Shown: piece by piece, positions 5,001-47,671 of the stretch
How positions within the stretch are numbered: the stretch's first letter is position 1
Layout of the letters: each line of letters begins with the position of its first letter
Assembly: GCA_964391325.1 (NCBI GenBank)
Contig: CAYMJM010000003.1
Location: 3,211-67,210 of the forward strand
Reading direction: 5' to 3'
Length of the DNA: 64,000 nt
Origin: an uncultured Candidatus Saccharibacteria bacterium
GTDB lineage: Bacteria; Patescibacteriota; Dojkabacteria; B142; JAFGMG01
Notes under the pieces: generated by a model
The model's database searches: none
What the model saw: the letters and a program-made list of their open reading frames with translations, nothing else
What the model was told of the DNA's origin: nothing
Position numbers and translations under genes: made by a program

Positions 5001-5426
5001 TCAGCTGATTATATAATAGCTCATTAAAGATAGAGTCAAACCTAATATAAAACCACCCAGAGCTTCAATATAGGTATGTCCAAGATTTTCCTTTAATTTT
5101 CTTCCTATAGATTTTTGGGGCTTTGTTTGTTCATTTAACACTTTTGCATGCAAGCCCGCTTGGTATCTTATATTTACAGCATCATATATTACAATAAAGG
5201 CAAACACCATAGCTATGACTGTTAAGGTAGATCCCCAGCCCTCCTGAAATGCCACGCTAAAGGTTAAAGCTGATACTAGTGTGACATGTAGACTTGGAAA
5301 TCCATTCGATGCAAGATGATCAATTCTATTACGCTTGATTATTTTTACGATGGATTTAACTGAATGTGCAATAAGCCATGCTAACAGTATCGACCATATA
5401 ATTTGATTATTTAGTAGCTCAACCAT
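5001..5426 (-). CDS. Divergent PAP2-family membrane protein (DUF212/YuiD-like)
   Basis: 141 aa, multi-TM, NGFPSLHVTLVSAL resembling the PAP2 SGMPSSH-type motif of YuiD-like proteins. Confidence 0.6.
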   Translation of the reverse strand: MVELLNNQIIWSILLAWLIAHSVKSIVKIIKRNRIDHLASNGFPSLHVTLVSALTFSVAFQEGWGSTLTVIAMVFAFIVIYDAVNIRYQAGLHAKVLNEQTKPQKSIGRKLKENLGHTYIEALGGFILGLTLSLMSYYIIS

Positions 5427-5580
5427 TTGATAAATCTAATATTTACTATACTAGCAGCATTTTCTATCTCTGAAAAGGAGGAGCATCTCAAAAAGACTAC
5501 GCTTACGAGTAGCCTAATTGGCTAAAGTGCTTTCTGTGTGTACTTAGTTGTGAAAGCTGGTCAGCTTAGAGAGGTTTTGT

Positions 5581-5841
5581 CTACCGCTGGCTATATCCCG
5601 TTTCTTCCCAGGGAGATTCCCATCCTTCATCACCGGGTCTAACACAATTACCATTAAATGGAATCAGAGTCTGATACCCTTCTCCTGCATTATTCTCGGT
5701 GTTAGACGTAGCGGTCTCTAGTGGCAAAGGATTTGAACCAGCTTGTACCTCTGGAGGCTCATCAACAGGAAAAAGAGGTTGTTGTTTGTATTCAGATGGA
5801 TCCCAACATGGATCCCAACTTGGTACTTCTGGCATATTCAT
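5581..5841 (-). CDS. Hypothetical small acidic Pro-rich protein (doubtful)
   Basis: 86-aa ORF with ATG start inside a locally GC-richer (~48%) segment; contains tandem 12-nt duplication (WDPxWDP); no SD; no recognisable domain. Confidence 0.25.
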   Translation of the reverse strand: MNMPEVPSWDPCWDPSEYKQQPLFPVDEPPEVQAGSNPLPLETATSNTENNAGEGYQTLIPFNGNCVRPGDEGWESPWEETGYSQR

Positions 5842-5972
5842 ACTTTAATATTAGCCGGAGCTTAACAAATCTTGATATATCTTGTAAAGCAAAAAAGGAG
5901 AAACTTGTCCTATAAGTAATTGGATTATATAATCATTGTTTCTATCTATATAATACGGTTACTTCCCAGTAA

Positions 5973-6527
5973 CTATATTGGGGTATCTTTAAGCTTTACA
6001 AAATACGCGAAGATTGTGGAGATTGGATGTAGTGTTGCCCATATAACAAGTATGTACAAATAATGGACAAAATCAAGTTGAATATATACATAGGAAAATA
6101 AAATCCCTCCCAGTATATAATCTATTTGATCAAATGGTATCCATGTTTTACCGGGCATTATATTCGCACGTCTTTTAAAGAAACTTTTCATAAAGTCACC
6201 GGCAAGAGCGCCAAAGCTCAAGAGAAAGCCGAGCAACAAAGGCTCCATGGTAGTGTAATTTATTGGAGAAGCCTTCTGTATCAGGCTTGAGTTGTTGTAG
6301 ATAGCTGTTTCAATGTATACAGATACTGTCCCGGCTAGTATCCCGGCTACCAGCCCTCTTATTGTTTTATGGTCTCCAAAAACCCTTGTACCTTTAAAGC
6401 TTTTATAAAAATCCAGTGGATAATTAAAATTTTTTAAAACTGGCAGCTTGGCTATTATAACAGGGGTCGTATTTGCAACACCTGCTGGTAAAAAGAAGAA
6501 TAAGGCAAAAAGGATATTATTCAACAT
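5973..6527 (-). CDS. carS: CDP-archaeol synthase (CarS, DUF46) family membrane protein
   Basis: 184 aa multi-TM; motifs FGDHKTIRGLVAGILAG and ALAGDFMKSFFKRR...PFDQIDYILGG match the archaeal CarS signature (GDGKTIRG... AGDLVGSFIKRR...DQLDF) recalled from A. fulgidus CarS. Confidence 0.75.
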   Translation of the reverse strand: MLNNILFALFFFLPAGVANTTPVIIAKLPVLKNFNYPLDFYKSFKGTRVFGDHKTIRGLVAGILAGTVSVYIETAIYNNSSLIQKASPINYTTMEPLLLGFLLSFGALAGDFMKSFFKRRANIMPGKTWIPFDQIDYILGGILFSYVYIQLDFVHYLYILVIWATLHPISTIFAYFVKLKDTPI

Positions 6528-7443
6528 TTTTCAATAAATGATTTAAATGAATTTTTGATAGGTTGATTATAAGATTTGGAATAATCAAGCCTCGTTTGAC
6601 AAGATTAGACTTTGAGTCCCAGAACCACCTCGTATCAACGAATTTTAATCCTTCTTTTGAAATAATTATATTATCAGTTTTAGTAAGCCAGTTGTAAGAT
6701 TCTATAAAAATGTATCGTGGCCTTGTGTCCGGAATAATATTTATTTGATAATGCATTAGCAAAAGCAGATATATCATCAGGATCAGTTGATAAGTTTCTT
6801 CCCTTGACATTTTAGCACTGTTCACATCATGCAAAAGTTCTCCTTTTATATACTGTTGAAAAATGAATTGAGTTTTCCTGTCTTTGTTTGGCTTGGAAAT
6901 GGAAGAGCCGTATAACAGGTATTCCTTTGGTAAGAAATTGTGATAACGAACTTTGGAGTCTAGTATTTTGTCGATTTTGGAATTTAACTTTATCCCGTAT
7001 TTTTTCTCTAGCTTAGGCTTAAAGTACGGAAGTGAATCCCTGATGCTTTTCTGGGCTGTATGAATGATACCTAGATTGGGATGGAAATAGTCTTCTTCTG
7101 ATTCAAAAAATCCAAAGTACTCTATAAAGTTCAGATATAGTTGGTACTGTCTTAATATTTCTTCTTCTCTGGGCAGGAAAGTAAAAGCAAACAATTTCAA
7201 AACTCTTTCCGTTATTTCCGCAGGGAGTGGTAGCTTTTTATCTCGAAAAAGCTCGATACTGAGGTCCCATCTGCTTTCTTTAAATACCCAGTCTTCTTGA
7301 TCAATCTTATATACACGTCCCATTTGTCCTGCAGCAATTCTGTCGTAGGTTCTCTTCGCCAGAATTTTTTTGATAGGTGCAGAGTGTACGGATAGCGGTG
7401 TATAAATGGCGTGTTTTTGAAGTTGTTTTTCAAATGTATTCAT
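6517..7443 (-). CDS. Hypothetical protein (308 aa) in operon between PHP phosphoesterase and CarS homolog
   Basis: ATG start; 4-nt overlap with upstream PHP gene and 11-nt overlap with downstream CarS gene imply co-transcription; no recognisable motif. Confidence 0.6.
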   Translation of the reverse strand: MNTFEKQLQKHAIYTPLSVHSAPIKKILAKRTYDRIAAGQMGRVYKIDQEDWVFKESRWDLSIELFRDKKLPLPAEITERVLKLFAFTFLPREEEILRQYQLYLNFIEYFGFFESEEDYFHPNLGIIHTAQKSIRDSLPYFKPKLEKKYGIKLNSKIDKILDSKVRYHNFLPKEYLLYGSSISKPNKDRKTQFIFQQYIKGELLHDVNSAKMSREETYQLILMIYLLLLMHYQINIIPDTRPRYIFIESYNWLTKTDNIIISKEGLKFVDTRWFWDSKSNLVKRGLIIPNLIINLSKIHLNHLLKNVE

Positions 7444-8090
7444 TTCCGGAATAATTTGATTATTTTATTTCTCTTCGGACCTAAAAATCCCCAGAGCGAG
7501 ACAGATCGTAAAACTAATTCAGGGTTAGTTAACTGTTCAAGCAGGTTTGATACGGTGGGCGCTTCAGCTGTGAGCGTATAAGTCCGTCCAATTTCTCCAA
7601 GCGAATGAGCATCGCTGCTTGCAGCAAAAGGCTTTGAATGTTTTTCATTAAAGTCTACAACAGTATTATTTCCATTGGGCATGATATTTCGCGCATTAAA
7701 GACTTCTATAATATCAACTAGTTGGATTAGTTCTTCCAGAATTTTTTTTGGAATTCCCTTCCGTCTAATATCAAAAGGATGTGGGATGTATACAAGTCCT
7801 CCTTGTCCTTTTATTTGTTCGATAGTTTCTCCAAGTTCTTGCTCGGGAGAAATTTTCTTTTTTAGAAAAAGCCCGATCACCTCGCCTGCTGTTGTTTTGA
7901 TTTCTTCTCCGACTATAATCTGTTCTCCAAGTTCTTGGTGCAGCGCAAGAGCCAAATCTATTTCATTATGGTCAGTAACTGCCACATAATTAAGCAACCC
8001 GGATTCCAGAATCTTTTTGTATGATTCTAGAGGTATCCCTCCGTCATGAGATAGGGTAGAATGTGTATGTAAATCTAGCTTATATGCCAT
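7440..8090 (-). CDS. PHP-domain metal-dependent phosphoesterase
   Basis: N-terminal DLHTHS(T)LSHDG and internal HPF/DAH motifs of the PHP (polymerase/histidinol-phosphatase) fold; 216 aa. Confidence 0.8.
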   Translation of the reverse strand: MAYKLDLHTHSTLSHDGGIPLESYKKILESGLLNYVAVTDHNEIDLALALHQELGEQIIVGEEIKTTAGEVIGLFLKKKISPEQELGETIEQIKGQGGLVYIPHPFDIRRKGIPKKILEELIQLVDIIEVFNARNIMPNGNNTVVDFNEKHSKPFAASSDAHSLGEIGRTYTLTAEAPTVSNLLEQLTNPELVLRSVSLWGFLGPKRNKIIKLFRK

Positions 8091-8168
8091 AATGATATTA
8101 TTTATTGAAAAACTTGACCTCCTACTTTAACAAGAAGGGGTGCTAAAGTAAATTATTATATTGTCTAT

Positions 8169-8765
8169 ATGTTCAATAAATTTCGTCCGCAATTGTTGCC
8201 TCTAGTTAATTTCGTGGCAACTCCATTCATGAGAATCCATCCAAATATTTTATCATTAATGTCCTTTGCAATGGCAGCTCCTGGCTTTTATTTTTATGTA
8301 AAGGGGAATTCACTGTTAGGTAGTTTATTTATTTTAGGAGCTTTATTTGACTCTGTGGATGGAGTAGTGGCCAGAAAAACCGATAAAACTTCTAAGTTTG
8401 GTGGGGTACTGGATGCAACTCTGGACCGTATTTTTGAAGGAGTCTTGCTTCTCTGTATTGGGATAGGTAATTTGGTTTCCTGGAATTTAGTCATGCTTTT
8501 GTATATTTTTTCGATATCAGTAAGCTATGTAAAGTCTAAGGCTGAGACAGTACTGCAGGAGACTAGTGTCGGCACTAATCAATTGTCGGTAGGTATTGCT
8601 CAGAGAGGAGAAAGGGTTGTAATTATTTTCTTGAGCTCTATTTTGAACTACTTTTTTACGCCTGAGAGTAATTCGTTATTTAACATTGCTCTGTTGATTC
8701 TGACTTTACTTGCTGCTTTTACTTTGTTGTGGAGGTTAAAAGTAGTTTATAATTTGCTGAGATAG
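8169..8765 (+). CDS. CDP-alcohol phosphatidyltransferase family protein
   Basis: Signature D-G-x2-A-R-x8-G-x3-D-x3-D present as DSVDGVVARKTDKTSKFGGVLDATLDR; multi-TM; divergent from the CarS operon. Confidence 0.85.
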   Translation: MFNKFRPQLLPLVNFVATPFMRIHPNILSLMSFAMAAPGFYFYVKGNSLLGSLFILGALFDSVDGVVARKTDKTSKFGGVLDATLDRIFEGVLLLCIGIGNLVSWNLVMLLYIFSISVSYVKSKAETVLQETSVGTNQLSVGIAQRGERVVIIFLSSILNYFFTPESNSLFNIALLILTLLAAFTLLWRLKVVYNLLR

Positions 8766-9198: not shown

Positions 9199-9852
9199 AT
9201 GCTTATATCCCAAATCTACAAAAACTATAATATCCCTCCTGGACTTCAATTACATATGTATAGAGTTACTGGAGTTGCATTTATAATATGCAACCATTTT
9301 AATGAGGGTATTGACAGAAATACTATCCTTTCAACCTGCTTTCTTCATGATATGGGAAACATAATTAAATTCAATTTTGATCTACTTCCTGAGTTATTTG
9401 AAGAAAAAGGGATAGAGTATTGGAAACAGGTTCAACAGGAATTTATTAAAAAATATGGTAATGACGAACATACTGCAACTCGAAAGATAGCGGAAGAAAT
9501 CGGTGTAAGTAAAAAAATTATTGATATTCTTGAGAATTTAGGATTTTCAAAAGCTCGCCAAATCTTTTTTTCGACTGATTACAATCTTAAAATATCCAGC
9601 TACGCAGATCAAAGGGTATCTATCAAGGGGATTGTTCCGATGGAAGAAAGGCATCGTGAAGGAAGGACAAGATACCTTAAAAGAAGCGACTTGAAGTCGG
9701 ACAAATCAGTTGAAAAATTTGAAAAACGAGCTGTGTGGATGCAGAAACTAGAGAAGCAAATTTTTGGCAAAACAGATATAAGTCCAACTTTTATCACAGA
9801 CGACGCGGTAAATAAGCAGATCTCAAATTTTTATGATTATGAGATTGTATAG
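9199..9852 (+). CDS. HD-domain phosphohydrolase
   Basis: H...HD metal-binding pattern (LHMYRV ... FLHDMGN); 217 aa. Confidence 0.7.
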   Translation: MLISQIYKNYNIPPGLQLHMYRVTGVAFIICNHFNEGIDRNTILSTCFLHDMGNIIKFNFDLLPELFEEKGIEYWKQVQQEFIKKYGNDEHTATRKIAEEIGVSKKIIDILENLGFSKARQIFFSTDYNLKISSYADQRVSIKGIVPMEERHREGRTRYLKRSDLKSDKSVEKFEKRAVWMQKLEKQIFGKTDISPTFITDDAVNKQISNFYDYEIV

Positions 9853-9919: not shown

Positions 9920-10510
9920 ATGAAGCTATTATTTGTACGGCATGGAGAATCAGTAGATGATCTTACTGATCAGTATGGTGGTTGGGGAGACTTTGACTTA
10001 ACCCCCAAAGGAAAAGTGCAGATACAGGAAACAGCAGAGAAGATAAAGGAGTTGGGCATTTCGTTTGATAAAGTACTGACTTCTCCTTTATTAAGAGCTT
10101 GGCAATCAGGAATGGTTATTGCAAATACACTTTCTATCCCGCTTGAAATTTTTCTTTATGCAAAGGAAAAAAATGGAAATGGACTCTTATCAGGTATGAA
10201 TAGAGAAGAAGCTAGAGAGGACTATCCTGAGCTGGTAAATGCTTTGGAACAAGGTTATGTATATGGCGCAGAGCCACAAGAGATGTTTATCGAACGCGTT
10301 AAATTTTCTGTTTCAGTGCTGTTGGAAAAACAGGCAAAAGCCTTAATAGTTGTAACACATGGAGGATACATGGGTGCTCTATTTAAAGAAATACTACATT
10401 TAGAATATCAGAAGACTCATGATGGAGGATTTATTTTATTGGAAGGGGATCATACTGAGAGACTGAAAATTAACACAATAGATGGAATTGATTATAAAGG
10501 CCAGATCTAG
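9920..10510 (+). CDS. Histidine phosphatase family (phosphoglycerate mutase-like) protein
   Basis: N-terminal RHGES catalytic motif; 196 aa. Confidence 0.8.
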   Translation: MKLLFVRHGESVDDLTDQYGGWGDFDLTPKGKVQIQETAEKIKELGISFDKVLTSPLLRAWQSGMVIANTLSIPLEIFLYAKEKNGNGLLSGMNREEAREDYPELVNALEQGYVYGAEPQEMFIERVKFSVSVLLEKQAKALIVVTHGGYMGALFKEILHLEYQKTHDGGFILLEGDHTERLKINTIDGIDYKGQI

Positions 10511-11142
10511 GCTAATTGTAACAGATCCCGAAAGTCAGTAAAAAAATAGTCTGCTCTGAGACTTTTTACTACTTCGTCGATATATAGTTTCTGATTAACT
10601 TCAGGGTAGAATAAAGCTGTTGCTACCCCTGTATTCTTGCCTGCTAAAATATCTTTTTCTGAATCACCAATCATAATAGTTTCTTCAGGATGCGCAGCAA
10701 TTTCTCTCATGGCCTTTTCCAGAGGTTCTGGGTCTGGTTTGAATCTGGTGACATCATCGCCACATACTACAGTATCAAATAGATCCTCAAGTTTATTTAT
10801 TCCTAATGCCGGCTTTACCTCTGTACTGTAACTAGTAGATACAATAGCTAATTTTTTTTCCTTAGATTTTAAATCTTCCAGAGTTTCCTTTACATTCGGA
10901 TGCAGTGATACAGATTGCAAACTTGTAGAAACTCTTGGCATCAATTCTACATAAAATTCTTCACCATCCAGCCCATGCTTTTGTGGCCCCTCATAGCCAC
11001 CTCCAAAAAAATCACTAACAATCTGGTCTGAAGTTAGTAGAATATTCTTTTCTTTTAATAATAAATCATAAGCTCTCAGCCATAGAGATAGTGTATCTGC
11101 TAAGCATCCATCCCAGTCAAAAAGAAAGTATTGATATTTCAT
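10507..11142 (-). CDS. HAD-superfamily hydrolase (subfamily IA)
   Basis: Motif I FDWDGCLADT, C-terminal IMIGDSEKDILAG motif; 211 aa. Confidence 0.85.
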   Translation of the reverse strand: MKYQYFLFDWDGCLADTLSLWLRAYDLLLKEKNILLTSDQIVSDFFGGGYEGPQKHGLDGEEFYVELMPRVSTSLQSVSLHPNVKETLEDLKSKEKKLAIVSTSYSTEVKPALGINKLEDLFDTVVCGDDVTRFKPDPEPLEKAMREIAAHPEETIMIGDSEKDILAGKNTGVATALFYPEVNQKLYIDEVVKSLRADYFFTDFRDLLQLA

Positions 11143-44162: not shown

Positions 44163-44189
44163 ATTTATCATAAAATAAATTGGCTTAGA

Positions 44190-44399
44190 AAAGGAATAGT
44201 AGACATATACAGAGAGCTGTTATGTTCTGAGAGACAGGAAATGTCGAACCTACCTTGGAGCTATCCTGGGAAACTAGGACGCATATCAGCGTTAAGATAT
44301 AATGAGTCTGTTTTAACAGTAAATTAAGGTGGTACCACGAGAAAGCTCGGCCTTATACACTTCATTTTTTGATATGATGTATAAGGCCGAGCTTTTTTC
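44190..44399 (+). promoter_or_regulatory. T-box riboswitch-like leader of proS (candidate Pro specifier CCU; antiterminator/terminator switch)
   Basis: T-box consensus AAATTAAGGTGGTACCACGAG at 44321-44341 (vs AATTAGGGTGGNACCGCG). Antiterminator fold: helix A1 AAGG/CCTT, 7-nt bulge TGGTACC, helix A2 CGAG-AAAG-CTCG. Overlapping 17-bp terminator hairpin 44343-44359/44378-44394 followed by TTTTTT. Candidate specifier CCT-A at 44249-44252. Confidence 0.7.
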
Positions 44400-44427: not shown

Positions 44428-45663
44428 ATGAAATACTCACAGCTATTTACCAGAACAGATAAGACTGCTAAAGAGTATGACACTGTTAATGCAACCTTGC
44501 TGGTTAAAGCGGGTTTTGTTAACCAACTTATGGCTGGAGCTTACACGATTTTACCCTTAGGCCTACGGGTATTAAGAAAAATTGAGAACGTAATCAGGAC
44601 CGAAATGAATGAGGCTGGTGGACAGGAAATTCTGATGCCAGCCTTACATCCAGCAGAAAATTGGAAGACCACAGGTGCTTGGGAGAGTGTAGATGTATTA
44701 TTTAAAATCAAGAGTAGAACTGGAAAGGAATACGCTTTGGGTCAAAGCGAAGAGGAGGTAGTTGCTCCCTTGGTGAAGCAGTATGTAAAGTCCTACAAAG
44801 ACCTTCCAGTGGCTGTGTATCAAATACAAAATAAATTTAGAGACGAACTTCGGGCAAAATCGGGTATCTTGAGAGGGCGTGAGTTTGGTATGAAGGATAT
44901 GTATTCATTTCATGAATCTCAACAAGATTTCCTGCGATTTTATGAAGAAATTAAAGAGGCATACAAAAGGATATTTAAGAAGCTTGGTTTAGTAGCTAAG
45001 GTAACTGAAGCTTCTGGGGGTGATTTTTCACAAAAAATTTCTTATGAATTTATGGTACTGACCGATGTAGGTGAAGACGACATTTTATATTGTCCTGAGT
45101 GTGACTTCTGTATAAATCAAGAAATAGCTAGCGATTTAAGGGACTGTAAGAAATGTGCAGCTGAGCTTATAAAAGCTAAAGCAGCAGAAGTGGGGAATGT
45201 TTTCGACTTAGGGCAAAAGTATCCTAAAGATTTCGATTTTACTTATACTGACAGGGATGGGGCAGAAAAATATCCATTTATGGGTTGCTATGGGATTGGC
45301 ACTACACGTGTAATGGGAGTAATTGTGGAGAAGTTTCATGATGACAAAGGTATCATCTGGCCGGAGCAGGTAGCACCTTTTAATGTTCATCTTATATCTT
45401 TGGGAGAGGGTACTGAAATTACCAAGGTTACTCAAAAAATTAATCGGGCTTTTCTTGATGCTGGGATAGAGGTTTTGTGGGACGATCGACAAGATATTAC
45501 TGCTGGAGAGAAATTTGTAGATGCAGACTTAGTAGGTATCCCACATCGTATTGTGGTGAGTGAAAGATCTTTGGAAAAGGGGGGAGTAGAGTATAAAAGC
45601 AGAAACGAGCAGACATCTCACATTTTCCCTAAAGAGGAATTGCTGGCTTTTCTTTTAAAGTAA
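44428..45663 (+). CDS. proS: Proline--tRNA ligase lacking the INS editing domain
   Basis: Class II motifs (KFRDELRAKSGILRGREF motif 2; GCYGIGTTR motif 3), C-terminal anticodon-binding domain; GAGGA SD 5 nt upstream; 411 aa, too short to contain the bacterial insertion editing domain. Confidence 0.9.
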   Translation: MKYSQLFTRTDKTAKEYDTVNATLLVKAGFVNQLMAGAYTILPLGLRVLRKIENVIRTEMNEAGGQEILMPALHPAENWKTTGAWESVDVLFKIKSRTGKEYALGQSEEEVVAPLVKQYVKSYKDLPVAVYQIQNKFRDELRAKSGILRGREFGMKDMYSFHESQQDFLRFYEEIKEAYKRIFKKLGLVAKVTEASGGDFSQKISYEFMVLTDVGEDDILYCPECDFCINQEIASDLRDCKKCAAELIKAKAAEVGNVFDLGQKYPKDFDFTYTDRDGAEKYPFMGCYGIGTTRVMGVIVEKFHDDKGIIWPEQVAPFNVHLISLGEGTEITKVTQKINRAFLDAGIEVLWDDRQDITAGEKFVDADLVGIPHRIVVSERSLEKGGVEYKSRNEQTSHIFPKEELLAFLLK

Positions 45664-45874: not shown

Positions 45875-47671
45875 ATGAAACGTACAATTTCTAATGAGTT
45901 AAAAAATAAAGTTGGAAAAAAGGTTTTAGTAAAAGGATGGCTGCATTCTCTAAGAATGTTAGGAGCTGTCAATTTTCTGATGTTAAGAGATCGAGGGGGA
46001 TTTACTCAGGTGGTGATTGAATCTAGAGATGAGCTAAATAAAGTTAAGGATTTGCAGCCCGGCTCTGTTCTTGCTATAGAAGCAGAGGTACAGAAATCTC
46101 TAAAGACATCATTGGGGGTAGAATTAGTATCTCCCTCGATTGTCATCGAGGTCCCCGTTAAGTATCCTTTACCACTTGATATTTCCAAAAAAGAGTTAAG
46201 CGCCAATTTGGATACTATTTTGGACTATAGATCTTTGGTATTGAGAAATGAAAAACAAATGGCAATATTTAAAATCCAAGCATCTATAATTGAAGCCTTT
46301 GCTCACAGTATGAAGGCTCAGGGATTCACGAGGTTTGATTCGCCTGTTTTGATGGGATCTCCTTCTGAGAGCGGAGCTGATGTTTTTGAAGTAAAGTATT
46401 TTGGCGACAAGGCTTATTTAGCTCAAAGCCCTCAAATATATAAGCAGATTATGGTAGGAGTCTTTGAAAGAGTATACACAATAGCCAAGGTTTTTCGGGC
46501 AGAAAAGCACAATACGTCGAGACACTTGATGGAGATCACTCAGCTCGATGGAGAAATGGGGTTTATAGAAAATTACGATGAGGTATTAGAAGTGGTTGAA
46601 AAGGTCGTAAGAGATATATTTACATACCTGGAAATTAACAATCCCATAGAGATAGAAGTGCTTAGCATTCAATTGCCTCAGTTACCGGAAGGAGGGTTTC
46701 CTAGAATTAAAGTAAAAGAAGCTTTGACCTTGATAGAGCAAAGAACTGGCAAATCAGCCAACAGAGAAGAGTTGGATGTTGACCCCGAGGACGAAAGGGA
46801 GATTACAGAATGGGCTAAAGAAGAACACAATTCTGAGTTTGTTTGGCTGCTAAATTTTAAATCCAATAAGAATTTTTATACATTAGACAATCCAGAAGAC
46901 AAAGGTGAATCTTTTAGTTATGACCTGCTATGTAGGGGGTTGGAATGGCTATCTGGGACTCATAGAATCCACAACTATAGTACACTACTGGAAAGACTAA
47001 AAAATCAAGGGTTGCAGGAGGAGCATTACAGCCATTACTTACAGGCTTTCAAATATGGTATGCCTTCTGAAGCGGGTTTTTCTTTTGGACTGGAGCGGGT
47101 AACACAACAGATTGTAGGGCTAGACAATATACGTGAAGCTACGCTTTTTCCTTCTGATCAGAAAAGAATTGCAGGGGCTAGAATTAAGAGAAAAGTAGTA
47201 CATGGAGAGGAGGAAGTTATCCGAGCTATTAAAACAATGTTTGAGGAAAGCAATAAGGAGTATAGATTTTTTGAACATGAAGCAACTATAACTTCTCAGG
47301 ATGCTGCTCGAATTCGTGGAACGAATCCAGATGAGGGGGTAAAAGCTTTGATTCTCAGATCCAAAAAAGATGGTAGAAACATAATGCTATGCTTACAGGG
47401 CAGTAAGAAAATAGATATGGGTAAATTGAAAAATTTATTGGGAGAATCCTTTACCTTTGAAGAGGCAGATAAGATAAAGCAAAGGTATGGTTTAGAGATA
47501 GGAGGAATCCCTCCTTTTGGCAATATTTTGGGTTTGGAGACCTACTTTGATTCTTCTATATTAAATACAGAGTATGTTTCTTTTAATTGTGGAAGCAGAT
47601 ATAAGTCAATACGTACAAAGACAAATAATTTAGCTAAACTTGTGTCACCTCAAATAGTTGATGTAGTGTAG
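45875..47671 (+). CDS. aspS: Aspartate--tRNA ligase (archaeal/eukaryal-type class IIb core) fused to a C-terminal YbaK/ProX-like aminoacyl-tRNA deacylase domain
   Basis: OB anticodon-binding N-terminus, motif 2 FRAEKHNTSRHLMEITQLDGEM, motif 3 GFSFGLERV, canonical class IIb C-terminus FPSDQKR at ~aa 440. A further ~150 aa follows with the YbaK pattern (VKALILRSKKDGRNIMLCLQG...GLEIGGIPPFGNILGLETYFD...VSFNCGS). Confidence 0.8.
   Translation: MKRTISNELKNKVGKKVLVKGWLHSLRMLGAVNFLMLRDRGGFTQVVIESRDELNKVKDLQPGSVLAIEAEVQKSLKTSLGVELVSPSIVIEVPVKYPLPLDISKKELSANLDTILDYRSLVLRNEKQMAIFKIQASIIEAFAHSMKAQGFTRFDSPVLMGSPSESGADVFEVKYFGDKAYLAQSPQIYKQIMVGVFERVYTIAKVFRAEKHNTSRHLMEITQLDGEMGFIENYDEVLEVVEKVVRDIFTYLEINNPIEIEVLSIQLPQLPEGGFPRIKVKEALTLIEQRTGKSANREELDVDPEDEREITEWAKEEHNSEFVWLLNFKSNKNFYTLDNPEDKGESFSYDLLCRGLEWLSGTHRIHNYSTLLERLKNQGLQEEHYSHYLQAFKYGMPSEAGFSFGLERVTQQIVGLDNIREATLFPSDQKRIAGARIKRKVVHGEEEVIRAIKTMFEESNKEYRFFEHEATITSQDAARIRGTNPDEGVKALILRSKKDGRNIMLCLQGSKKIDMGKLKNLLGESFTFEEADKIKQRYGLEIGGIPPFGNILGLETYFDSSILNTEYVSFNCGSRYKSIRTKTNNLAKLVSPQIVDVV

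Follow-up and report, generated by a model that had tools for sequence, protein, structure and literature searches.

A CarS-family protein and an orphan kinase-fold protein in a conserved gene module of Candidate Phyla Radiation bacteria, with a possible role in lipid head-group salvage

In a 64-kb stretch of bacterial DNA (the window, meaning the whole stretch analyzed), we investigated a gene cluster that encodes a CarS-like membrane protein, an orphan protein of 308 amino acids (aa), a PHP-family metal-dependent phosphoesterase, and a CDP-alcohol phosphatidyltransferase (CDP-OH transferase). The data suggest that the cluster is a lineage-wide module found in the Candidate Phyla Radiation (CPR, Patescibacteria), which would activate or replace the head group on lipids that the cells do not make themselves, as a four-step salvage line; we put the probability of this reading at about 0.55. 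As far as the evidence goes, three points are new: an operon for four steps that is conserved, an orphan family with a kinase fold in the place of a DAGK_cat lipid kinase, and a candidate phosphatase for phosphatidylinositol phosphate (PIP) in the PHP protein. Public records already contain a 'CDP-archaeol synthase' in CPR genomes, the name that automatic annotation has given there to several CPR homologues of the CarS-like protein; full-text literature searches, some of them poorly targeted, found no discussion of CarS homologues in CPR.

The cluster and its four proteins

The genes for the PHP protein, the 308-aa protein, and the CarS-like protein form one overlapping-gene operon, as had been described in the original prediction, which was made from the letters of the window. 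The three genes are translationally coupled: the PHP gene ends and the 308-aa gene begins within a common ATGA of 4 nt (7440-7443), and the 308-aa stop and the CarS-like start overlap by 11 nt (6517-6527). The CDP-OH transferase gene is divergent from this operon across 78 bp. All five open reading frames (ORFs) of the prediction, including a neighbouring DUF212 gene, were confirmed with their positions and strands (Table 1). Homologues at about 50% identity span several CPR phyla, and the cluster ORFs are therefore real genes and not chance. The 78-bp spacer presumably holds shared promoters for both transcription directions; promoter-like hexamers were seen, but the count for the region was not above that of shuffled controls (18 versus 14.6±3.3), and a promoter and terminator scan of the operon did no better than shuffled sequence.

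The window has the composition of ordinary low-GC bacterial DNA (about 36% GC), which is unbroken at the cluster. Its core genes include LepA, TrpRS, an mraZ-mraW-ftsI-murA wall and division cluster, RNase J, pyruvate kinase, iPGM, and SSB. The closest named relatives of the cluster proteins come from Candidatus Dojkabacteria / WS6 of the CPR, and to judge from these relatives the host is probably a tiny-genome CPR bacterium of the Dojkabacteria. Statements on the presence or absence of lipid genes in the source genome refer to this window. Outside the cluster, the window holds none of the bacterial lipid genes cdsA, plsX/Y/C, pgsA, dgkA, and DAGK_cat.

First, the CarS-like protein was compared with known families. 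It matched PF01864 over profile positions 1-174 of 175 with 99.6 bits (cut-off 22), whereas its match to the CdsA family PF01148 was weak and secondary (30.1 bits). By sequence, the protein is thus a member of the CarS family rather than of the CdsA family, as predicted, and the motifs that had been quoted for it, GDHKTIRG, AGDFMKSFFKRR, and PFDQIDY, are present in the translation. Its sole solved relative is CarS of Aeropyrum pernix (ApCarS, 5GUF; E=2.4e-14), with which it has the motifs GDxKTxxG, GALAGDxxxSFxKRR, and DQxDY in common. The catalytic-looking residues D111, K118, R119, D133, and D136 were invariant across 35 CPR homologues, and a crude hydropathy scan gave three strongly hydrophobic segments. 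Like the archaeal CarS proteins of A. fulgidus and A. pernix, it matches the Pfam family over the full length, is a multi-pass membrane protein, and is of similar size (184 aa versus 182 for the 5GUF chain), and the CTP-transfer chemistry is presumably the same. It differs from ApCarS by about 20 extra residues, which form two insertions, one of about 7 around residues 32-38 and one of about 13 around residues 90-102. It differs from archaeal CarS also in its bacterial (CPR) host, in a lipid substrate that is probably diacyl, and in its operon partners, which are a kinase and a PHP phosphatase and not archaeal ether-lipid genes. On these family matches we propose that it is an integral-membrane CTP:lipid-phosphate cytidylyltransferase. 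The step proposed, from phosphatidate and CTP to CDP-lipid in a bacterial cell, is that of CdsA, although CdsA belongs to another subfamily, is a distant superfamily relative, and is larger (its Pfam profile has 264 positions). In total, 1374 homologues of the CarS-like protein were detected, and the named ones are Patescibacteria.

The CDP-OH transferase matched PF01066 with 59.1 bits, in agreement with the original prediction, and contains in FDSVDGVVARKTDKTSKFGGVLDATLD the complete CAPT motif D-x2-DG-x2-AR-x8-G-x3-D-x3-D. Its best family model was that of archaetidylinositol-phosphate synthase (AIPS), followed by that of PIP synthase (PIPS), and the scores on the pgsA model (30.5 bits) and the pssA model (31 bits) were far below both. 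The best relatives in the PDB were the M. tuberculosis PIP synthase PgsA1 (6H53; 1e-9), IPCT-DIPPS (4MND), and RsPIPS (5D91), all of which use inositol phosphate. The protein therefore resembles AIPS and PIPS (PgsA1 6H53; R. salmoninarum PIPS 5D91) in its CAPT motif, in its length of about 200 aa, and in its best family and PDB matches. Head-group attachment as in archaetidylinositol-type pathways had been suggested, and the inositol-phosphate type of the transferase agrees with it.

The PHP protein belongs to a family with 3689 matches and about 50% identity across CPR phyla. Every canonical His/Asp/Glu metal ligand is invariant, so that the set of the trinuclear site is complete, and the predicted structure was a confident PHP fold. 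No PDB relative was detectable by sequence. In fold and in the full ligand set the protein is like the known PHP phosphoesterases (TM0559, the pAp phosphatase BAD_1165, RNase AM, and HisJ/HisK). A phosphatase linked to the CarS-like gene had been predicted, and the PHP protein of the same operon takes this place.

The 308-aa protein is the most novel part of the cluster. It is soluble and net basic, and it had no match in a profile search of Pfam, NCBIfam, or the PDB; a family of 45 members had no match to a kinase family in Pfam at E<=5. The family is tiny: grouping at 90% identity leaves 76 clusters, and a collection of 1.84 billion proteins contains 87 representatives. It is almost confined to the Dojkabacteria, to which all its named members belong. 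Its kinase fold was revealed by structure prediction only: the AlphaFold model built from the 45-sequence alignment (pLDDT 87.4, pTM 0.87) showed a bilobal kinase fold, and in Foldseek every top match of this model was a protein kinase (haspin, RIO, PKR, PknG, and YabT). Invariant residues of the family are G39 in the β1-β2 turn, K55 in β3, D239 in 'PDTRPRY', which follows the long core helix, N258, and D270 in 'IDTRW'. K55, D239, N258, and D270 stand in the order expected of the β3 Lys, the catalytic-loop Asp, the metal-binding Asn, and the DFG Asp of kinases, and the invariance of this set argues for catalysis. In an hhalign comparison with PKA, a weak local alignment of 2.4% probability placed 'IPDTRP' on 'YRDLKP' and D239 on D166, which we used as a check of consistency only and not as proof. 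On the model, the protein is best described as an orphan protein-kinase-like (PKL) enzyme with an intact-looking active site. Known PKL kinases of small molecules and lipids include APH, RIO, COQ8/ADCK3, WaaP/KdkA, and choline kinase. From these the 308-aa protein differs in that it has no sequence relationship to Pfam kinase families, carries a helical insertion of about 75 residues after helix αC (residues ~93-167), has its Asn in a non-canonical position, and belongs to a family nearly confined to one lineage.

Conservation of the module and the kinase slot

A scan of one genome per species in GTDB showed that at least 499 genomes encode a CarS-like protein. The neighbourhoods of the best 80 were searched with the window proteins and hidden Markov models (HMMs), and genes within about 3 kb of the CarS-like gene were counted as neighbours. 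These 80 genomes were essentially all CPR (Dojka-, Sacchari-, Levyi-, Roizman-, Microgenomates-, Pacei-, and Parcubacteria). A CDP-OH transferase was found near the CarS-like gene in 66 of the 80 loci, a PHP gene in 51, and both in 49, and several loci that did not have both were contig ends. Complete genomes with the module include CP129475.1 (Dojkabacteria), OY970292.1 (Levybacteria), and OZ246394.1. These counts, together with the failure of the DUF212, HD, His_Phos_1, and HAD genes of the window to appear at any of the 80 loci, define the module core as transferase, PHP, and CarS-like protein. The original prediction of an archaeal-style module in a bacterium was borne out as to the CarS sequence family and the AIPS/PIPS type of the transferase, but the module is not special to one genome. 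A recent transfer from archaea into this genome was rejected, because the cluster is shared widely among CPR and does not stand out in composition.

The transferases of the window and six other loci all scored best on the AIPS model (85-159 bits), with PIPS next and pgsA and pssA far lower. In 10 of the 80 loci, the module transferase stood beside a gene for myo-inositol-1-phosphate synthase (MIPS; PF01658, E ~1e-36), usually together with a LysR regulator, which gives contextual support to an inositol-phosphate head group. The MIPS gene was paired with a divergent LysR-type regulator in L014, L015, L016, L019, L023, L025, L048, and L071 (loci are numbered with L); the pair lay about 2.4-5.7 kb from the CarS-like gene, in L025 on its downstream side. 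This pairing suggests regulated synthesis of inositol lipids in these CPR.

Next, the gene between PHP and the CarS-like gene was examined. In 24 of the 80 loci, from Levyibacteria-type, Microgenomates, Paceibacterota, and unnamed lineages, this gene of about 300 aa encodes a DAGK_cat + YegS_C lipid kinase (PF00781, E=4e-18; PF19279, E=1e-12) of the TIGR00147 YegS/Rv2252/BmrU family. In the Dojkabacteria-type loci (six GTDB loci and the window), the identical slot holds the 308-aa protein, in which PF00781 and PF19279 were not found, and the two genes co-occurred in none of the loci. The slot proteins of the other lineages were not detected by an HMM of the 308-aa family, and the possibility that they are divergent 308-aa orthologues was rejected, as they belong to the unrelated DAGK_cat family. 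The 308-aa protein is thus like the DAGK_cat kinases (DgkB/YegS/Rv2252/BmrU) in operon position and in its proposed function, the supply of phosphatidate for head-group synthesis, but it is unlike them in fold (protein-kinase-like versus DAGK_cat/NAD-kinase-like) and without sequence similarity to them. Among these kinases, Rv2252 of M. tuberculosis feeds the synthesis of phosphatidylinositol mannosides (PIM). In a distance tree of CarS-like proteins, with a single outgroup taken from the 5GUF alignment, the proteins linked to a 308-aa gene grouped together, which fits one displacement event. The original prediction had left the 308-aa protein uncharacterised; this holds as regards sequence families, but a predicted kinase fold and a place in a lipid-kinase slot can now be assigned to it.

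The 308-aa gene adjoined the CarS-like gene in 10 of the 14 contexts examined, and this adjacency survives in three arrangements, co-directional overlapping, divergent, and convergent; in L088 and L089 the 308-aa gene is convergent and is flanked by the transferase and CarS genes. In L007 and L012 the 308-aa gene stands beside the CarS-like gene, although the inositol-type transferase has been lost, and in L005 it does so with a true PgsA (TIGR00560, 130 bits) about 1 kb upstream, on the far side of an epimerase gene. As the adjacency is kept in these three loci, the 308-aa gene tracks CarS and not the head-group enzyme, which points to the supply of the CarS substrate: a lipid alcohol, for example diacylglycerol, would be phosphorylated to phosphatidate. 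That the 308-aa protein acts as a lipid kinase and feeds CarS has, in our estimate, a chance of roughly one in two. As side observations on this family, tandem 308-aa paralogues (311 and 334 aa) occur at L085:4998-7005, divergent from a CDP-OH transferase and a CarS-like gene, and the records P0165 and P0177 suggest adjacent paralogues in another metagenome-assembled genome of Dojkabacteria.

The proposed pathway and its alternatives

CPR bacteria have been reported to be unable to make lipids and to be probable scavengers (PMC7242380, PMC13293708). In the pathway that we propose, the 308-aa kinase, or DAGK_cat in other CPR, would first convert a scavenged lipid alcohol, most likely diacylglycerol (DAG), to a phosphatidate-type lipid. 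The CarS-like protein would then form CDP-lipid and PPi from this lipid and CTP. In the third step, the AIPS/PIPS-like transferase would exchange CMP for inositol-1-phosphate to give PIP, and finally the PHP protein would remove the phosphate of the head group, yielding a phosphatidylinositol-type lipid (PI). What the sequences and models give are the assignments to families and folds, catalytic residues that look intact, translational coupling, and conserved linkage. From these we infer what each of the four enzymes acts on, in which order the steps run, and that the acyl or alkyl part is bacterial (diacyl), and the functions of the four proteins are predictions. The logic is that of PI synthesis in bacteria and archaea, and each component (CarS, AIPS/PIPS, PHP, and PKL kinase) belongs to or resembles a known kind. 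The guess of diacyl rather than diether lipids in the original prediction fits this context. For a Saccharibacterium from the rhizosphere, generic annotation had led to the proposal of a related route, in which scavenging is followed by conversion of CDP-DAG to PI and PIM (PMC6031116).

The place of the PHP protein in this scheme comes from gene context alone. That its gene regularly lies next to the transferase gene and upstream of the CarS-like gene is the reason for assigning it the dephosphorylation after PIP synthesis, and it suggests a candidate PIP phosphatase. We know of no PHP enzyme that acts on the phosphate of a lipid head group. In bacteria and archaea this step has been without an assigned enzyme, and a review of 2022 listed the PIP phosphatase as still unidentified (PMC9385802).

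Several observations weigh against the proposed pathway, and the main objection is biochemical. Purified archaeal CarS has a strong preference for digeranylgeranylglyceryl phosphate (DGGGP) over diacyl-phosphatidate and did not complement E. coli cdsA (PMC9385802). The use of diacyl lipids by a CarS-family enzyme would consequently be without precedent, and a diacyl substrate would mean a shift of specificity within the family. The CarS-like protein scored 133.5 bits on the NCBIfam equivalog of archaeal CarS (NF003114), below the cut-off of 148, and for this reason the function of a CDP-archaeol synthase is not established for it. The transferase reached 128.8 bits on the AIPS model (cut-off 180) and 87 bits on the PIPS model (cut-off 170), so that it also falls under both equivalog cut-offs, and MIPS, DAGK_cat, and dgkA were not found in the window. 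The structures nearest to the PHP protein act on nucleotides or RNA or are uncharacterised. The interpretation in the original prediction is supported in part: the families, CarS included, and the inositol-phosphate type of the transferase stood, but an archaeal insertion special to one bacterium and the membership of DUF212 did not, and a CDP-archaeol synthase is not established.

Other points bear on the 308-aa protein. The position of the canonical catalytic-loop Asn is occupied by Tyr, and N258 follows an insertion, so that its equivalence is inferred. Four of the 14 contexts, with divergent members of 36-47% identity, had no lipid neighbours; one of these four (L091) and two remoter relatives on short contigs adjoined GT2 glycosyltransferases, and some enzymes of the family in its wider sense may act on other substrates. 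These GT2-adjoining remote members lie at L091:4073-5011, L092:1360-2385, and L093:1767-2783. A DgkA-type kinase (PF01219) was found near the module on the opposite strand at L028:5742-6146 and L047:8202-8621, and since both loci also have the 308-aa gene, a second DAG kinase in the 308-aa protein may be redundant. The modules of Saccharibacteria, cultivable ones included, consist of transferase, PHP, and CarS-like genes and have no kinase in the operon. The contexts with GT2 genes or without lipid genes, the nearby DgkA, the modules without a kinase, and the displaced Asn are the reasons for which the grading of the lipid kinase was held at the level given above.

Alternatively, the 308-aa protein might phosphorylate scavenged myo-inositol, or another polyol or sugar, and so substitute for the MIPS that is missing near the Dojkabacteria modules. 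We consider this unlikely. The 308-aa gene tracks the CarS-like gene and is kept in the two loci without an inositol-type transferase, the head-group enzyme near it in L005 is PgsA, which needs only glycerol-3-phosphate, and the slot in the sister lineages holds a lipid kinase with or without MIPS.

It is also quite unlikely that the cluster serves an archaeal-type pathway, in which CDP-archaeol or a CDP-isoprenoid-ether lipid would be made from the lipids of the cell itself or of an archaeal host and then converted to archaetidylinositol phosphate. The best family models of the CarS-like protein and the transferase are archaeal, and ApCarS is the only PDB relative of the former; archaeal CarS discriminates against diacyl-phosphatidate (PMC9385802), some CPR parasitise methanogenic archaea (PMC13293708), and homologues of GGGPS and DGGGPS have been reported from one Parcubacteria genome (PMC7852524). 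However, both proteins score below the archaeal equivalog cut-offs, and the window holds no glycerol-1-phosphate dehydrogenase (G1PDH), GGGPS, or DGGGPS (UbiA-type) gene. The kinases that accompany the module belong to the bacterial DAGK_cat/YegS type, and at one locus its companion is a bacterial-type PgsA; neither the window nor the partner genes lend support to such a pathway. Furthermore, the CPR with known archaeal hosts belong to other classes than most loci of the module, and the lipids so far reported as enriched in CPR are fatty-acid-based lysolipids (PMC7242380).

A role of the 308-aa protein as a regulatory protein kinase, or as a pseudokinase scaffold for the membrane enzymes rather than an enzyme of the pathway, is quite improbable as well. 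The top structural neighbours are protein kinases and the catalytic-loop Asn is out of its standard position, as this role would allow, but the invariant Lys/Asp/Asn/Asp set argues for catalysis, sensor or interaction domains are absent, and the replacement of a lipid kinase in its slot, together with translational coupling to CarS, better fits a pathway enzyme. Very improbable is a CarS-like protein that acts as a CTP-dependent lipid-alcohol kinase in a cluster for recycling polyprenyl-phosphate or cell-wall carrier lipids, with PHP as pyrophosphatase or phosphatase: the CTP-transferase superfamily does include CTP-dependent dolichol and phytol kinases, a weak match to the superfamily family PF01148 exists, wall-synthesis and DgkA-type (undecaprenol-kinase-like) genes lie near some modules, and remote 308-aa relatives adjoin GT2 enzymes, but the similarity to bona fide CarS, at 133.5 bits and with the CarS motifs in common, is far stronger, and the most constant neighbour (66 of 80) is a CDP-alcohol transferase, which needs a CDP-activated donor.

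The salvage of lipid head groups therefore remains our preferred reading. A more specific statement, that in the phospholipid head-group synthesis of several large CPR lineages CarS and AIPS replace or accompany CdsA and bacterial synthases on scavenged diacyl lipids, that PHP is the PIP phosphatase, and that the 308-aa protein is a new family of DAG kinases, is tentative. If it is true, a CarS-family enzyme would cross the 'lipid divide' in its use of substrates, and the 308-aa protein would found a family of diacylglycerol (lipid) kinases with a protein-kinase fold, having displaced DAGK_cat in the Dojkabacteria. As archaeal CarS is held to reject bacterial phosphatidate, a CarS clade in a diacyl context would show how specificity shifts, and with the 308-aa protein would come a new lipid-kinase family of unexpected structure, as well as a clean case of non-orthologous displacement. 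CPR bacteria account for much of the diversity of bacteria, and it is a puzzle how their membranes come about without lipid synthesis; on the head-group side of this puzzle, the compact conserved operon offers four enzymes that can be tested directly.

Neighbouring genes and other observations

The features of the cluster and its flanks are listed in Table 1. The original prediction had named the DUF212 (divergent PAP2) gene as adjacent to the cluster. It is adjacent in the window, separated from the CarS-like gene by 546 bp, but DUF212 was found near the CarS-like gene in none of the 80 related loci. As the adjacency was seen in this genome only, its membership was rejected, and the gene probably lies outside the module. 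The HD, His_Phos_1, and HAD genes were likewise rejected as module members, since none is kept with the CarS-like gene in the 80 loci. The 86-aa ORF, for which public records have an 84-aa gene, is acidic and rich in Pro and Trp; it has no counterpart in the 80 related loci and is doubtful as a genuine gene.

Table 1. Features of the cluster and its flanks in the 64-kb window
Feature	Position	Strand	Evidence or remark
DUF212 (divergent PAP2) membrane protein	5001-5426	-	PF02681, E=1.2e-33
86-aa ORF, doubtful	5581-5841	-	Between CarS-like and DUF212 genes
CarS-like PF01864 membrane protein, 184 aa	5973-6527	-	Pfam, E=2.7e-28
308-aa orphan, protein-kinase-like fold	6517-7443	-	Predicted structure; no match in Pfam
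PHP-family metal-dependent phosphoesterase, stand-alone	7440-8090	-	PHP_C, E=3.9e-9, and weak PHP match
Divergent intergenic spacer, 78 bp, AT-rich	8091-8168		Between CDP-OH transferase and PHP-kinase-CarS operon
CDP-alcohol phosphatidyltransferase, AIPS/PIPS type	8169-8765	+	PF01066, E=8.5e-16
HD-domain protein, weak	9199-9852		Just past tRNA-Lys
Histidine phosphatase (His_Phos_1)	9920-10510		Past tRNA-Lys
HAD hydrolase	10507-11142		Past tRNA-Lys

Records titled Gammaproteobacteria, Chloroflexia, Ktedonobacteraceae, Limnocylindrales, Sulfotelmatobacter, and Lysobacterales also carry the CPR-type module (L009, L010, L017-L019, L030, L033, L039, L043, L048, L061, L065, L068, L070, L071, L073, and L077). 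Because their module is of this type and their sequences fall among those of CPR in the CarS tree, these records are probably mislabelled or misbinned. At L088:6460-7014 and L089:6472-7029, a guanylate-kinase-family gene lies directly downstream of the CarS-like gene in the same direction and is followed by NDP-sugar epimerase and Nudix genes. In the complete Dojkabacteria genome CP129475.1, a Cas12a/Cpf1 of 1336 aa (RuvC_1, E=2.7e-77; REC1, NUC, Cpf1 PI, and REC2) is encoded at L012:12480-16490, about 2 kb downstream of the kinase-CarS pair.

Elsewhere in the window, a T-box leader at 44177-44357 (+), with 97.4 bits against a gathering score of 93, precedes the gene for a class II synthetase of 411 aa at 44428-45663 (tRNA-synt_2b + HGTP_anticodon). 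A class II aminoacyl-tRNA synthetase of the Asp/Asn/Lys type (tRNA-synt_2 with an OB anticodon domain) is encoded at 45875-47671 (+) and carries a C-terminal YbaK-type tRNA_edit domain (PF04073, E=2.4e-22), a fusion that looks unusual.

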